Assembly (NCBI GenBank): GCA_001803465.1
Contig: MHDE01000002.1
Location: forward strand, 1-47,304
DNA: 47,304 nt
Direction of reading: 5' to 3'
DNA from: Microgenomates group bacterium RIFCSPHIGHO2_01_FULL_45_11
GTDB lineage: Bacteria > Patescibacteriota > Microgenomatia > UBA1400 > 2-01-FULL-45-11
The position numbers were made by a program, and so were the translations under genes. The notes under the pieces were generated by a model. The model ran no database searches and was not told the origin of the DNA. It saw only the letters and a list, made by a program, of their open reading frames with translations. This document shows, piece after piece, positions 31,295-42,971 of the stretch; the stretch's first letter is position 1, and each line of letters starts with the position of its first letter.

Positions 31295-31608
31295 CCCACT
31301 CTTTTTGGTTATTATCTGATACCATGACTGCATGTATTACGTTTATGTTTTAAAAAGCCAAAAATATAAGCAGTTGAAAATATATATCGGAATTACAGCC
31401 GATTTAAAAAGTCGAGTTGCCCAACACAACAACAAAGAAACCATATCAACTCGATTTGGAATTCCTTGGAAGTTAGTCTATTATGAAGCATTCCTACACA
31501 AAAATGATGCTATTAGAAGAGAAAAAAGGCTAAAAGTTGGAACCAGTGCAATTGGCTTTTTAAAACGAAGAATTAAACAGTCATTGGATAGTAATTGAAA
31601 AGAGTGGG
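31295..31608 (+). mobile_element. E1: stem-bounded GIY-YIG cassette in the 16S helix-6 region (314 nt)
   Basis: cccactctttt (31295-31305) and aaaagagtggg (31598-31608) are exact reverse complements flanking the ORF. The flanks gcaaatcgagcgg / cagcggtgaacgggtgagtaatg match the conserved sequence on either side of E. coli helix 6. Confidence 0.85.
31332..31598 (+). CDS. Small GIY-YIG nuclease-family protein (COG2827/UPF0213-like), 88 aa
   Basis: MYYVYVLKS..KIYIGITADLKSRVAQHN...WKLVYYEAF...AIRREKRLK carries the GIY, YIG, Arg and Glu motifs. Confidence 0.8.
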   Translation: MYYVYVLKSQKYKQLKIYIGITADLKSRVAQHNNKETISTRFGIPWKLVYYEAFLHKNDAIRREKRLKVGTSAIGFLKRRIKQSLDSN

Positions 31609-32335
31609 CAGCGGTGAACGGGTGAGTAATGCGTAGGAATCTACCTCTTGGTGGGGAATAGCTCGCCGAAAGGCGGGGTAATACCGCGTAAGTAACGCCA
31701 CATGGCAACATGTGGCGTTAGATAGGCCGTAACTGGCCGCCGAGAGATGAGCCTGCGTGCTATCAGCTTGTTGGTAGGGTAATGGCCTACCAAGGCGATG
31801 ACGGCTAGGGGGCGTGAGAGCGCGATCCCCCACAAGGTCACTGAGACACGGGGCCTACACCTACGGGTGGCAGCAATCGGGAATCTTGCGCAATGGGCGA
31901 AAGCCTGACGCAGCGACACCGCGTGTGGGAAGACGCCTTTCGGGGTGTAAACCACTGTGGCAGGGGACGATAATGACGGTACCCTGCTAGAAAGCACTTG
32001 CTAACTACGTGCCAGAAGCCTCGGTGAAACGTAGGGTGCAAGCGTTATCCGGATTTACTGGGCGTAAAGGGTTTCGTAGGCGGAGAAACTAGTGGCGGGT
32101 GAAAGCCCACGGCTCAACCGTGGAATTGCTCGTCATACGGTTTTTCTAGAGTCTGTTAGGGGAGGCTAGAATTCTCGGTGGAGGGGTGAAATCCGTTGAT
32201 ATCGAGAGGAATGCCAAGGGCGAAAGCAGGCCTCTGGGGCAAGACTGACGCTAAGGAACGAAAGCTAGGGTAGCAAACCGGATTAGAGACCCGGGTAGTC
32301 CTAGCCGTAAACGATGGATACTAGATGTCCCTTCC

Positions 32336-32491
32336 GCTGAAAGCTGAAGAGAAATGTCTAATTGACCTAATTGCTCTAATTAACGTAATTAAATTCCCAA
32401 TTTTCAAATAACCTAATGAAGCTTGAGATTGGTGTTTGATTAGAAATTAGAATAATTAGAAATTGGTCATTTCCAAAAGCTTCTGCTTTTG
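32336..32491 (+). repeat. ORF-less AT-rich hairpin insertion in the 16S helix-26 region (about 156 nt)
   Basis: Interrupts gatactagatgtcccttcc / ggagggggtgtcgtaagctaacgcgttaag. The arms are built of ctaatt / aattag words. It shares the 15-mer ctaattgctctaatt (32367-32381) with the 23S insertion at 40835-40849. Confidence 0.8.
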
Positions 32492-33072
32492 GTGGAGGGG
32501 GTGTCGTAAGCTAACGCGTTAAGTATCCCGCCTGGGTAGTACGGCCGCAAGGCTAAAACTCAAAGGAATTGACGGGGAGGCGCACAACCGGTGGAGCATG
32601 TGGTTTAATTCGATACAAAGCGATGGACCTTACCTGGGCTTGACATGTACCTGCACTCCCGTAGAAATACGGGATTCTTCGAGAGTGGTACACAGCTGCT
32701 GCATGGCTGTCGTCAGCTCGTGTCGTGAGATGTCGGCTTAAGTGCCGTAACGAGCGCAACCCCTGTCCCGTGTTGAATATTCACGGGAGACTGCCTTACA
32801 GCAAGTAGGGAGGAAGGAGGGGATGACGTCAAGTCATCATGGCGCTTACGTCCAGGGCCACACACATCCTACAATGGGAAGGACAACGGGTTGCGACCCG
32901 GCAACGGTGAGCTAATCCTTCAAACCTTCCCTCAGTTCGGATTGGGGGCTGCAACTCGCCCCCATGAAGTCGGAATCGGTAGTAATCGCGGATCAGCAGA
33001 CCGCGGTGAATACGTTCTCGCCTCTTGTACACACTGCCCGTCAAGCCAGCAAAGTTGGCAGCGCCCGAAGTA

Positions 33073-33143
33073 CCCCTCACCTTTACCCGGAACAGAACAC
33101 GGCTGAATAAGCAGACGTTAAGTATCAGAGTAAAGGTGAGGGG
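33073..33143 (+). repeat. ORF-less insertion at the tip of 16S helix 44
   Basis: The stem cccctcaccttta (33073-33085) / taaaggtgagggg (33131-33143) encloses cggctgaataagcag (33100-33114). The stem resembles the E2 stem cccctcactcttt. Confidence 0.7.
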
Positions 33144-33431
33144 GTCTAAGGCGAGGTCAGCGATGAGGACTAAGTCGTAACAAGGTATCCGTACTGGAAG
33201 GTGCGGATGGATCACCTCCTTTCTAAGGAGTTTGGGTTACCCCCTCACGCGGGTAGCCTTTCCCGATGTAAATCGGGATAAAACCAAAGAGCTTCCTACT
33301 ACATCTGAAACTATATTAGCCATCAGCCATCGGGCAACAGTAAGTAATTTGACCAATCATTATTTACTGCTCATTATTCATTACTTTCTGCTCTCTTTTT
33401 TCTACTTCTTACTCATTAATTATTATCCTTT

Positions 33432-33668
33432 ATGGCCATCAATTCTCCTGAACAGAACACACCAATTGAACAGAGTCTGGGTTACTATTTAGGACCTTCT
33501 AATCTGGCCAAGACCGTTGAAGGCCTTAGCCTCCTGGCTGGTTTAACCTTAGAAAATCCCGCCGTCATCGCCGTCGCCGGCCTCCTTCTAGTTGTTAACG
33601 TCGCCACCGACGTCGTCATTATTGGCGTCAAAATCCTTCCCCATCTTTCTTCTCCGCCGGAAGATTAA
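33432..33668 (+). CDS. Hypothetical small membrane protein
   Basis: 78 aa with a C-terminal hydrophobic stretch AVIAVAGLLLVVNVATDVVIIGV. Confidence 0.4.
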   Translation: MAINSPEQNTPIEQSLGYYLGPSNLAKTVEGLSLLAGLTLENPAVIAVAGLLLVVNVATDVVIIGVKILPHLSSPPED

Positions 33669-33754
33669 TTTCTCAAAAATTCCTAGAGTTAACTTCTTCT
33701 CCATCAACTAGACTGTTTCTCTCCAGGAAATAGGACGTATAATACGGCCAAGAA

Positions 33755-41345: not shown

Positions 41346-41628
41346 GGTTACAGGACCCTAATGTGGGATAGTGAAGGATAGGATAACCAGCTGGAAAGCT
41401 GGGCCATAGACGGTGACAGCCCCGTGTCCGAAATCCAACATTGCCCTAGGGGTATCCTAAGTACTCTCGGAGACGGCAAACTCCGTTAGGAAGTTGGGGT
41501 GACCACACTCCAAGGCTAAATACACGTTCTGACCGATAGTGAACTAGTACCGTGAGGGAAAGGTGAAAAGAAGGGTGGAAGACCCAGTGAAATAGTACCT
41601 GAAACTACTTGCTAACAAACAGTCAGAG

Positions 41629-41725
41629 CCACGCCACTTTGTTGTTGAATTGACATTTTGGAAGATGAACAAATCATATAATTTGTTTGCCTTCGGAATG
41701 TTTATTCGACGATAAAGTGGCGTGG
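41629..41725 (+). repeat. ORF-less 97-nt hairpin insertion in 23S
   Basis: Closed by the stem ccacgccacttt / aaagtggcgtgg. The interior folds as a long imperfect hairpin. Confidence 0.65.
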
Positions 41726-42355
41726 TGATGGCGTGCCTATTGAAGAATGAGCCGGCGAGTTAACGCCATATCCTTGTCTAAGGTACTTTGTACCGGAGGC
41801 GGAGTGAAAGCGAGCGTGAATAGCGCGTTTTTGGATATAGCGTTAGACCCGAAACCAGGCGAGCTAACTATGGCCAGGGTGAACCCCGAGGAAACTCGGG
41901 GAGAGGCCCGCACCGGTGTGCGTTGCAAGGCGCTCGGATGAGCTGTGGTTAGAGGTAATATGCCAATCGAGCCTGGAGATAGCTGGTTCTCCCCGAAACA
42001 TATCTTGGTATGGGCTTGCGTTAAGCTTGATGGGGGTAGAGCACTGGATGGTCCCGATGGGGAAACCCGTTGGGATCAATCAAACTCCGAATACCGTCAA
42101 GTGTTCCGCAGGACTCAGTCTACCGGGGCTAAGCTCGGTGGGCAAAAGGGAAACAACCCAGACCCTCGTCTAAGGTCTCTAACTCTTTGCTTAGTGGGAA
42201 AGGAAGTCATACTCCAAAAACACCCAGGAGGTCGGCTTAGAAGCAGCCATCCTTGAAAGAAAGCGTAACAGCTCACTGGCCGAGGAATATGGCGCCGAAG
42301 ATTTACGAGGCTTGAAGCAAAGGACCGAAGACAGGGATCTTGTCCGAAGGACAAG

Positions 42356-42475
42356 AATGATGAATAAATACCAATGGCCAATAAGTACCAATAAATACAA
42401 ATGAATAATCAACGGTTGAATCATTCATCATTGGTGCTCATTGGTAGTATTTGACATTTGTCATTCTCGCCCTTC
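42356..42475 (+). repeat. ORF-less ~120-nt AT-rich hairpin insertion in 23S
   Basis: aatgatgaataaataccaatgg... pairs with ...ccattggtagtatttgacatttgtcatt. Sits where E. coli has only a short hairpin before GGTAGGGGAGC. Confidence 0.65.
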
Positions 42476-42656
42476 GGGCGAGGTGGTAGGGGAGCATCCC
42501 GAAGGCAGTGAAGGTGAGCTGTAAGGCTTGCTGGAGCGTTCGGGAGCGAGAATGCCGGCATAAGTAGCGAAAAGCTGGTGAGAATCCAGCTCGCCGTATA
42601 CCCAAGGTTTCCGAAGCAACGTTCGTCAGCTTCGGGTTAGGCGGCCCTAAGGTGAG

Positions 42657-42967
42657 CCCCGCTCTTTCTGTATCTCATTGTGAAAGAGGTATGATGATGT
42701 AGAGGAAGCTATAAACTACGTCTATATACTTCTCCATCGCGTAAACGGAAGACATTACATTGGTTTTAGCTCTGATTTAAAGAGAAGGATTAAAGAACAC
42801 CAAGCGAAGAATAAATACTGGGAGTTGGTATATTACGAAGCTTATCGAGATGAAAAAGAAGCTAGTATCAGGGAAAGTAAACTAAAACAATATGGAAGTA
42901 GTTGGAAACAGCTTCGAAAAAGAATTAAAAAGAGTATGCGATTTGATGAGAGATGGAAAGAGCGGGG
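42657..42967 (+). mobile_element. E3: stem-bounded GIY-YIG cassette in 23S domain III (311 nt)
   Basis: ccccgctctttc (42657-42668) and gaaagagcgggg (42956-42967) are exact reverse complements. The flanks ggccctaaggtgagc / gtagccgatggataacgggttaatattcccgt match the conserved 23S sequence around a hairpin tip. Confidence 0.85.
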
Positions 42968-42971
42968 GTAG
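42711..42971 (+). pseudogene. Third GIY-YIG paralog lacking a canonical start (ATA where the paralogs have ATG)
   Basis: The frame is open from 42684 to TAG 42969-42971 and absent from the ORF track. It reads (I)NYVYILLHRVNGRHYIGFSSDLKRRIKEHQ...WELVYYEAY...ASIRESKLKQ. There is no ATG/GTG/TTG upstream of the GIY motif, and ATA 42711 aligns with the start Met of E1 and E2. Confidence 0.6.

Follow-up and report, generated by a model that had tools for sequence, protein, structure and literature searches.

Hairpin-bounded GIY-YIG gene cassettes in the rRNA genes of a Microgenomates bacterium and their relatives in other bacterial RNA genes

The rRNA genes and their three cassettes

The 47,304-nt stretch of DNA analysed here (the window) corresponds to contig MHDE01000002.1, positions 1 to 47,304 of the forward strand, of assembly GCA_001803465.1. 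It belongs to Microgenomates group bacterium RIFCSPHIGHO2_01_FULL_45_11, a member of the candidate phyla radiation (CPR). Its 16S and 23S ribosomal RNA (rRNA) genes harbour three insertions of about 0.3 kb, here named cassettes E1, E2 and E3, each consisting of one open reading frame (ORF) for a GIY-YIG protein within a long inverted repeat. The three insertions had been proposed in an initial annotation and were confirmed by Rfam covariance-model alignments and by mapping onto Escherichia coli. Their positions are as follows.

31226-33222, plus strand: 16S rRNA gene; Rfam SSU_rRNA_bacteria, 1372.8 bits; 1997 nt, about 464 nt above model length
31294-31609, plus strand: E1 cassette, replacing the tip of 16S helix 6; 294-nt insert at small-subunit model positions ~80-83 (cmscan alignment)
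31294-31317, plus strand: E1 5' arm, GCCCACTCTTTTTGGTTATTATCT; 12 bp perfect, 24-26 bp counting G·U pairs
31332-31598, plus strand: E1 ORF, 88-amino-acid GIY-YIG protein; ATG start; PF01541 E = 1.5e-12
31586-31609, plus strand: E1 3' arm, overlapping the final codons and the stop
40662-44435, plus strand: 23S rRNA gene; Rfam LSU_rRNA_bacteria, 2011.6 bits; 3774 nt, about 849 nt above model length
41053-41345, plus strand: E2 cassette, at the 23S H15 site; 275-nt insert at large-subunit model position ~284
41053-41074, plus strand: E2 5' arm, CCCCTCACTCTTTGTGTTCGAT; 13 bp perfect; 22 nt, 91% complementary
41087-41341, plus strand: E2 ORF, 84-amino-acid GIY-YIG protein; ATG start; PF01541 E = 6.8e-15
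41324-41345, plus strand: E2 3' arm, overlapping the final codons and the stop
42657-42967, plus strand: E3 cassette, at a hairpin tip of 23S domain III; 305-nt insert at large-subunit model position ~1403
42657-42678, plus strand: E3 5' arm, CCCCGCTCTTTCTGTATCTCAT; 12 bp perfect; 22 nt, 86% complementary
42711-42971, plus strand: E3 GIY-YIG frame, 86 codons intact; PF01541 E = 7.5e-11
42946-42967, plus strand: E3 3' arm, inside the final codons

The flanks of E1 map between positions 68 and 101 of the E. coli 16S rRNA, in helix 6 (h6). Those of E2 map just after 23S position 268, at the site of H15, a helix missing in E. coli, and those of E3 between 23S positions 1360 and 1371, at the tip of the hairpin preceding the GUUAAUAUUCC hairpin, which is probably H52. 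The ORF occupies 255-267 of the 293-316 nt of each cassette, leaving a non-coding part of 26-45 nt, and the three proteins share 38-44% amino-acid identity. The perfect inverted repeats measure 13 bp in E2 (CCCCTCACTCTTT) and 12 bp in E3 (CCCCGCTCTTTC), as first reported, and 12 bp instead of 11 in E1 (GCCCACTCTTTT); we estimate that chance alone would give some 0.001 repeats of this kind in each pair of ~130-nt flanks. When folded with G·U pairs allowed, the closing helices grow to 22-26 bp.

That every cassette is filled by an ORF stands for E1 and E2, both started by ATG (a GTG at 41066 is an alternative start of E2 and would yield 91 amino acids), and, with one correction, for E3. The E3 frame is intact and lacks a canonical start: ATA occupies the start position (42711-42713), where homologues have Met, 5 nt downstream of a GAGGAA sequence, and no in-frame ATG, GTG or TTG was found upstream of the NYVYIL motif. 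The stop codon TAG (42969-42971) lies outside the cassette, in the conserved native rRNA sequence GUAGCCGAUGG. Because of the ATA and the missing upstream start, no gene caller recorded E3; identical recorded proteins exist for E1 and E2 (the protein identical to E2 was called, as P0121, on 12 contigs) and none for E3. The same E3 sequence was recovered, without a difference, from 7 further contigs of the population, and its reading frame would be either newly inactivated or else weakly translated. The window sequence recurs in ten other metagenome contigs, with E1-E3 100% identical wherever a contig spans them; these contigs stem from samples with the labels ANAN16-1_SAMN03842431/37 and from JGI 3300025322. 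No decayed copies beyond E1-E3 were detected when all family proteins were compared with the window by tblastn.

Several known element classes were examined and rejected. No intron family was matched in the window at the Rfam gathering score, nor at E ≤ 1 with permissive filters, and the cassettes offer no room for a group I or group II ribozyme, in agreement with the early exclusion of both. For group I introns, there was no Intron_gpI match and the ORF fills nearly the whole ~300-nt element; for group II introns, there was no Rfam match and the element measures only ~300 nt. Matches to mir-31_2 (41635-41721) and preQ1-II (41069-41195) were far below their cut-offs and were considered noise. 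An archaeal bulge-helix-bulge intron was discarded on the grounds that the cassette boundaries lie in continuous perfect helices of 12-13 bp. A transposon or miniature inverted-repeat transposable element was discarded because, in spite of the inverted ends, there is no transposase and no target-site duplication was seen; comparison of filled and empty sites indicated that the cassette flanks equal the native helix strands. A phage origin was rejected after a scan of IMG/VR with the family pattern gave no relative.

The encoded proteins and the closing helix

The PF01541 scores of E1, E2 and E3 were 48.1, 55.6 and 42.6 bits against a cut-off of 22.6, which bears out the coherent paralogous GIY-YIG family first described. 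Residues Y3, Y5, Y16, G18, R26, H30, E50, R61 and E62 are invariant in 19 sequences (E1-E3 and 16 homologues); mapped to the residues of I-TevI, the invariant columns include the catalytic Tyr of GIY, the Tyr of YIG, the Arg, the His and the metal-binding Glu. The nearest solved structures by sequence were the UPF0213 proteins 1zg2 and 1ywl, followed by SLX1. The AlphaFold2 model of E2 (mean predicted local distance difference test, pLDDT, 92.3) has three strands and three helices, and Foldseek ranked its matches in the order UPF0213 1zg2, Slx1 4xlg/7cq3 (TMq 0.62-0.66), I-TevI 1ln0 and the N-terminal domain of UvrC 1yd6, with E-values of 3e-3 and weaker, modest on account of the small domain. 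UPF0213/YhbQ proteins, of the same size as the cassette proteins, thus give the best matches in both sequence and fold, and SLX1 is among the best in both. From sequence and model, the cassette proteins are predicted nucleases of the UPF0213/SLX1 branch of the GIY-YIG superfamily. UPF0213/YhbQ proteins are ordinary cellular genes or subunits, and SLX1 has a RING domain and a partner, SLX4; neither is known to have a role in an RNA-embedded cassette. Literature searches on COG2827, UPF0213, YhbQ and GIY-YIG with RNase P RNA gave nothing relevant. Among E1 orthologues the ratio of nonsynonymous to synonymous substitution rates (dN/dS) was 0.12-0.14, and therefore the protein is maintained by selection.

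The cassette proteins consist of the ~85-amino-acid catalytic domain and one basic C-terminal helix. No second Pfam domain and no recognisable DNA-binding module were found in E1-E3, no family-level NCBIfam model matched, and TIGR01453 (group I intron endonuclease) matched only the N-terminus, far below its cut-off. This architecture counts against classical homing, in which the nuclease would cut an uninterrupted site in the rRNA gene (the hairpin palindrome) and repair would copy the cassette in, the stem only rendering the insertion harmless. On the side of homing are the GIY-YIG fold itself, which is an established homing-endonuclease fold, and the presence of I-TevI among the fold matches; the distribution of the cassettes, which also bears on homing, is described below.

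Ungapped closing helices of 15-26 bp were found in 36 cassettes, reaching at least 19 bp in 34 of the 36. Over the 36 stems, 727 Watson-Crick, 89 G·U and 9 A·C pairs were counted on the ungapped arms and not with an alignment tool, since realignment would break the arm register. This tenfold excess of G·U over A·C pairs is what selection on the helix in the sense-strand RNA, and not on the DNA alone, would produce. Relatives are designated by locus numbers preceded by L, of which L001 is a Beckwithbacteria genome and L041 and L056 are Levybacteria genomes; in the E1 orthologues L001 and L003, three positions have changed on both strands with pairing kept. With 22-26 bp in the window, the excess of G·U over A·C and these compensatory changes, the closing stem fits the double-stranded-RNA excision handle initially suggested.

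Many stems share an end motif, CCC..CAC, composed of a C-rich run, then CAC, then a T-rich stretch. The arms in the window are variants of it (E1 CCCAC-TCTTTT, E2 CCCCTCAC-TCTTT, E3 CCCCGC-TCTTTC), and the shared C(A/G)CTCTTT core noticed at the outset is real and forms part of this motif, which is widespread across the family. The CCCCGCACCT end occurs in 16S h9, in helix P3 of RNase P RNA, in an operon spacer and in 23S H25 of Methylotuvimicrobium. E3, at H52, and L097, at H25 of another organism, share CCCCGCTC[T/A]TTC, the end of L097 being CCCCGCTCATTC. For five different-site pairs with at least 60% protein identity, arm similarity was 11.2 against a background of 5.6 (p = 9e-5), which supports the view that the arms travel with the ORF over short distances. 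Filled helix-6 alleles retain nothing of the native tip.

The joint conservation of protein and stem, the stem-end motif conserved across host sites and phyla, and the stem features that fit sense-strand RNA would also agree with self-excision, in which the GIY-YIG protein recognises the CAC-box RNA stem and either cuts out the cassette itself or, like a maturase, assists the cut. Against this reading, the known activity of GIY-YIG enzymes is that of DNA nucleases; ORF-less hairpins with the same ends and the start-less E3 persist in essential rRNA, unless paralogues act in trans; and RNase III is sufficient and well-precedented. We consider self-excision very unlikely.

Relatives, gain and loss

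A pattern scan of one genome per GTDB species yielded 213 relatives, of which the best 80 were examined. The locus search used a narrower alignment (A2) because alignment A1 was too diverse for searching. Some 30 of the best 80 relatives lie inside rRNA genes and 11 in RNase P RNA; the rest have no rRNA within 6 kb. Mapped onto E. coli, the rRNA host sites are h6, h9 and h44 of 16S and H15, H25, H52 and H68 of 23S. Homologues of E1 with 74-77% identity (L001, L003 and other metagenome contigs) occupy the same helix-6 site, and the nearest named relative is from Candidatus Beckwithbacteria; the CPR affiliation of the host genes is in line with their closest relatives, Beckwithbacteria and Levybacteria. 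Cassettes at the E2 site were also found in L006 and L007, and the same mapping assigns L074, L076 and L083 to 16S helix 9 and L066 to the surrounding h9/h10 region. The H25 copies extend across Gammaproteobacteria, Deferribacter, a Firmicute and CPR, and include the cultured strains Methylotuvimicrobium sp. KM1 (complete genome), Deferribacter thermophilus BMA and Lagierella massiliensis SIT14. Metagenome-assembled genomes (MAGs) of Methylococcales, Alteromonadaceae and SAR324 have copies in H25 or H68.

The RNase P copies (L015, L022, L025, L026, L028, L029, L033, L039, L042, L043 and L049) reside in helix P3 of Saccharibacteria, Paceibacteria, Peribacteria and other CPR, with the 3' arm running straight into the P4 sequence AGGAAAGTCCG. 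Rfam confirmed RNase P for two cassette loci (214 and 181 bits), with strong matches in L049 and L043, and the cassette of L049 is spanned by pairing of the P1 and P2 strands. The Rfam match of L022 is weak and misaligned (33.8 bits), and its assignment is based on the AGGAAAGTCCG junction and on the strong matches in L049 and L043; the P3 copies in L015, L029 and L039 score below the Rfam gathering score. In all of the ~30 rRNA copies and all 11 RNase P copies the ORF is in the sense orientation of the host RNA. Among 11 hairpin-bounded copies examined outside RNA genes, the six clearest spacer copies lie between co-oriented protein genes.

Some relatives present other arrangements. The H25 insert of Methylotuvimicrobium sp. 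KM1 (L079, NZ_CP173170.1, 5848-6395) is composite, with CCCCGCACCTAAATT and its complement present twice each, and the ORF is enclosed by an inner 24-bp swapped-strand helix and an outer helix or, alternatively, by two flanking ~100-nt hairpins. In L027 and L044 a short native-looking H15 hairpin (CCGAGCATTCAT..GAGTGCTTGG) closely resembles the stem of their own H25 cassette (CCGAGCACTCAAC...). The repeat that brackets L058 (2280-2593) is an inverted duplicate of the start of a downstream dehydratase-like gene (TGGAGF codons), which is a different way of bracketing the cassette. L098 carries a free-standing 23S_rRNA_IVP (PF05635) gene (5202-5576), adjoining a nucleotidyltransferase/HepT pair, 2.4 kb downstream of a hairpin-bounded GIY-YIG cassette.

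Sites were found filled or empty among relatives. The helix-6 site measures 20-32 nt when empty and 316-322 nt when filled, L041 being empty with 20 nt. No cassette occupies the E3 site in L001, L006 or E. coli, where it measures 17, 11 and 10 nt, respectively; the E2 site is vacant in E. coli and in L001 is taken up by an ORF-less hairpin of 95 nt whose ends are cassette-like. Because of this presence and absence among relatives, the stems are not ordinary lineage-wide helix extensions. A metagenome scan with the RNase P junction recovered complete cassettes, in which 276-311 nt separate the arms, as well as hairpins that are short or lack an ORF. Relative to L139, L170 and L211 show a clean internal deletion of 232 nt that removes the ORF and keeps both arms; over ~290 aligned positions of flanks and RNase P, they otherwise differ from it by 4 mismatches and a single 1-nt gap. 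In L042 the ORF within P3 is truncated. ORF-less P3 extensions of uniform length, with 86-92 nt between CCCCGCACC and GGTGCGGGG, were seen in about 14 distinct sequences.

The filled and empty alleles at the same sites, the site-associated clades of the protein tree (h6, H15, gammaproteobacterial H25 and RNase P) and the phylogenetic breadth of the H25 copies are all in accordance with classical homing. Against it, the cassette substitutes a native hairpin rather than splitting a conserved sequence, and closely related cassettes with the same arms occur at unrelated sites. Together with the protein architecture, these data make homing unlikely. The further suggestion that the closing stem also serves as the homing target is rather disfavoured, given the bare ~85-amino-acid domain, the UPF0213/SLX1 kinship and the similar stem ends at unrelated host sites.

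About half of the best 80 relatives are free-standing, with no rRNA nearby and many without a flanking repeat, and the family is widespread in bacteria. Both observations would suit a domesticated cellular gene, that is, a small UPF0213-type nuclease with a host role, such as DNA repair, that borrows strong promoters. Three diverged copies in one operon, one of them start-less, the sporadic presence among close relatives and the existence of deletion derivatives argue otherwise and are better explained by a selfish element than by an essential host gene; domestication was judged the most improbable of the explanations considered.

In addition to the cassettes, the rRNA genes of the window contain the following ORF-less hairpins.

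33073-33143, plus strand: ORF-less 71-nt hairpin at the tip of 16S helix 44; ends CCCCTCACCTTT / AAAGGTGAGGGG, of cassette type
41629-41725, plus strand: ORF-less 97-nt hairpin in 23S H25; ends CCACGCCACTTTGTTGTT / GATAAAGTGGCGTGG, resembling the E2 arms
43354-43451, plus strand: ORF-less 98-nt hairpin in 23S; ends TCCCGCCACATT / AATGTGGCGGGA
43833-43929, plus strand: ORF-less 97-nt hairpin in 23S; ends CCGCGCCACATTT / AATGTGGCGTGG

In L056 the helix 44 site is occupied by a full GIY-YIG cassette and in L041 by no more than the short hairpin CCTC-TTTTT-GAGG, and the hairpin at 33073-33143 is, judging from its ends and site, probably an ORF-less relative or remnant of a cassette. The three 23S hairpins of 97-98 nt share the ends C(C/G)CGCCAC(A)TT / AA(T)GTGGCG(G/T)GG and are possibly related to the cassettes. 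An extended 16S h9 hairpin (~31692-31721) carries the same CGCCACATG motif, and relatives hold GIY-YIG cassettes at h9. Two long AT-rich ORF-less hairpin inserts, at 40815-40955 (23S H9/H10 region) and ~32325-32500 (16S helix 26), look related to each other because both share TAATT-containing repeat runs (CTAATTGCTCTAATT...); both are missing from the Beckwithbacteria relative. A further ORF-less hairpin insert of ~135 nt occupies 23S H45 (42340-42480), a classical intervening-sequence site, and its ends lack the cassette motif.

So many ORF-less hairpin extensions in one operon, and the location of all sites at surface hairpin tips that tolerate extensions, would also be compatible with cassettes retained in the mature rRNA as surface helices, their ORF being rarely translated or kept for other reasons. 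An ORF locked in an assembled ribosome would hardly be translatable, and yet this one is under purifying selection; helix length and quality match those of known intervening-sequence stems cut by RNase III; the same cassettes occur in mRNA spacers, where they would have no architectural role; and transcripts of CPR rRNA genes reportedly lack the insertions (PMC11270868, citing Brown et al. 2015). Retention is, in our opinion, quite unlikely.

With regard to the surroundings, the 16S-23S gap (33223-40661) spans 7.4 kb and contains protein ORFs on both strands. The Rfam scan of the window also detected tRNA-Ile, tRNA-Ala and 5S; tRNA-Ile (38176) and tRNA-Ala (40225) are split by an ORF for a 369-amino-acid membrane protein. 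This layout is an unlinked arrangement of the kind described for CPR. The neighbouring genes have ordinary cellular roles and encode glycosyltransferases, a radical SAM enzyme, a carbamoyltransferase and a histidine kinase, and the window has an ATP-grasp gene that also adjoins 16S in Candidatus Beckwithbacteria RBG_13_42_9. No rnc gene was found in the window. Upstream of 16S lie the hairpin GGTGCTCCCCCCCTCGACGGGGGGACTCGCACCTTAAAAA (30777-30815), in which GGTGC...GCACCTT has the reverse of the cassette-arm order, and an imperfect 33-nt inverted repeat (30719-30751 with 31152-31184).

Comparison with known systems and possible mode of propagation

The opinion that the cassettes could not be placed in any characterised class has to be withdrawn on two counts. 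First, GIY-YIG ORFs in non-intron rRNA insertions of CPR have already been catalogued: the study of Tsurumaki et al. 2024 (J Bacteriol) lists 30 of them, 15 in 16S and 15 in 23S, all in insertions 'not similar to either intron', and considers them sparse and suggestive of recent horizontal acquisition, probably outside homing (PMC11270868). E1-E3 are of this kind, catalogued but uncharacterised, and share with it the host group, the Pfam domain, the lack of intron similarity and the scattered, poorly conserved 16S and 23S sites. The closing helix, the end motif, the sense orientation, the decay products and the copies in RNase P RNA, operon spacers and non-CPR hosts do not appear in the accessible part of that account. 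Within a literature coverage that is incomplete and does not prove novelty, neither the closing helix and end motif nor the copies in RNase P RNA and spacers, nor any carriers outside CPR, were found described.

Second, the anatomy is that of ORF-bearing bacterial rRNA intervening sequences (IVSs). The 23S IVS of Coxiella measures 428 nt and has a 28-bp terminal stem that RNase III cuts in the middle, after which the 23S rRNA stays fragmented; its S23p ORF is decaying and apparently untranslated (PMC4990558). Like the cassettes, the IVSs excised by RNase III (Salmonella H25/H45; Leptospira, Coxiella) are hairpin-tip inserts with a long stem of complementary ends, 28 bp in Coxiella and 22-26 bp in the window cassettes, and those of Leptospira and Coxiella with an S23p ORF also have the ORF in the loop and a sporadic distribution. 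Both Salmonella sites recur here, since relatives of the cassettes occupy the classical H25 and the window has the ORF-less insert at H45. They differ in the ORF, which in IVSs encodes the four-helix S23p (PF05635) and in the cassettes a GIY-YIG protein, decaying in Coxiella and under purifying selection in the cassettes, and in the host, since IVSs reside in 23S and cassettes also in 16S, RNase P RNA and mRNA spacers. Cleavage by RNase III is known for IVSs and would extend to the cassettes by analogy.

Two further systems offer partial parallels. Group I introns of the I-TevI type share with the cassettes the GIY-YIG catalytic fold and the residence in essential, highly expressed genes, and have in addition a ribozyme and a nuclease linker and DNA-binding domain, all of which the cassettes lack. 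Archaeal bulge-helix-bulge introns of rRNA and tRNA are likewise ribozyme-free coding inserts removed by a host RNA endonuclease at a boundary helix, as the cassettes would be; they are distinguished by two 3-nt bulges around a 4-bp helix and by LAGLIDADG ORFs, and the hosts of the cassettes are bacterial.

Taking all data into account, we favour, with moderate confidence, the interpretation that the cassettes are promoter-less selfish elements excised from the precursor RNA at the stem. E1-E3 are three diverged copies of a widespread family of ~0.3-kb cassettes apparently without a promoter of their own, each formed by one gene for a GIY-YIG protein of ~85 amino acids within its own closing helix of 22-26 bp. 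They replace or lengthen hairpin tips of highly transcribed stable-RNA genes, always in the sense orientation, and functionally would represent the ORF-carrying form of bacterial rRNA IVSs. The cassette would be transcribed within the precursor rRNA; its closing helix would be a processing site for double-stranded RNA, most likely for RNase III; and the ~300-nt RNA would be cut out, leaving an rRNA that still works, probably as fragments held together by the helix stub. The released RNA would be the only plausible message for the nuclease, a role that agrees with the strict sense orientation and with the seeming absence of a promoter in the cassette. The nuclease, in turn, would act on DNA in such a way that the cassette spreads or is retained. 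Cassettes would then decay, as the start loss of E3, the ORF-deleted two-arm derivatives elsewhere and the ORF-less hairpins in the same operon suggest. We infer co-transcription, release by stem cleavage and the use of the released RNA as message from the anatomy of the Coxiella IVS and from the absence of CPR insertions from transcripts. From the kinship with SLX1 and UPF0213, it might be speculated that the nuclease acts structure-specifically on hairpin-forming DNA.

A number of observations weigh against excision and mobility of this kind. The arms were located by a search for perfect repeats, which biases the pairing counts, and the G·U excess may partly reflect T-rich 5' arms and purine-rich 3' arms. 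Over all pairs, arm similarity did not increase with protein identity (Spearman -0.10; reached by 459 of 500 permutations). The outermost stem pairs can be host-derived: CCTC/GAGG is native by comparison of L041 with L056, the empty H52 tip of L001 reads CCCCG...CGGGG, and CCCCGCACC/GGTGCGGGG with a loop of 4-6 nt is the P3 hairpin of some cassette-free RNase P genes. A lone catalytic domain of ~85 amino acids would be a poor candidate for a site-specific homing enzyme. No Shine-Dalgarno sequence precedes E1 or E2, which says little either way because most genes of the window are also without one. The Coxiella ORF, seemingly untranslated, indicates that IVS ORFs need not be expressed; for the cassettes expression is argued from the low dN/dS, unlike in Coxiella. 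Finally, some MAG taxonomic labels are unreliable (e.g., 'Pseudomonadales' for L006) and were not relied on.

In its broadest form, the proposal would be that of an undescribed class of mobile element, a hairpin-bounded, promoter-less ~0.3-kb gene for a GIY-YIG nuclease of SLX1/UPF0213 type. If true, such an element settles in operon spacers and in hairpin tips of any heavily transcribed stable-RNA gene (16S, 23S or RNase P RNA), and does so beyond CPR as well, in Proteobacteria, Deferribacterota and Firmicutes; its RNA-processing stem moves along with it between sites; and its decay yields the ORF-less 'intervening sequences' that have lacked an explanation of their origin since 1990. The target of the nuclease may be a hairpin-forming DNA structure instead of a sequence, and the P3 helix of RNase P may be the source of the common CCCCGCACC/GGTGCGGGG end. 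For all parts jointly we can commit ourselves only tentatively, somewhat short of even chances: the proposal is plausible and testable, but not established.

The window alone represents a tidy, unusually dense case of something already listed for CPR bacteria, in which one rRNA operon bears, besides its three GIY-YIG cassettes, four or more additional hairpin inserts whose ends resemble those of cassettes; the wider comparison of relatives matters more than the window itself. CPR RNase P RNAs are often missed by standard covariance models and have large helix extensions, with ORFs unmentioned (Lui et al. 2021), and a 280-nt ORF inside P3 may partly explain why these genes are missed. Since the carriers include cultured strains, excision, translation and nuclease specificity are directly testable. 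Nuclease cassettes with related ends that reside in rRNA, RNase P RNA and spacers and leave ORF-less hairpins behind would provide a concrete, testable origin for the intervening sequences of bacterial rRNA.

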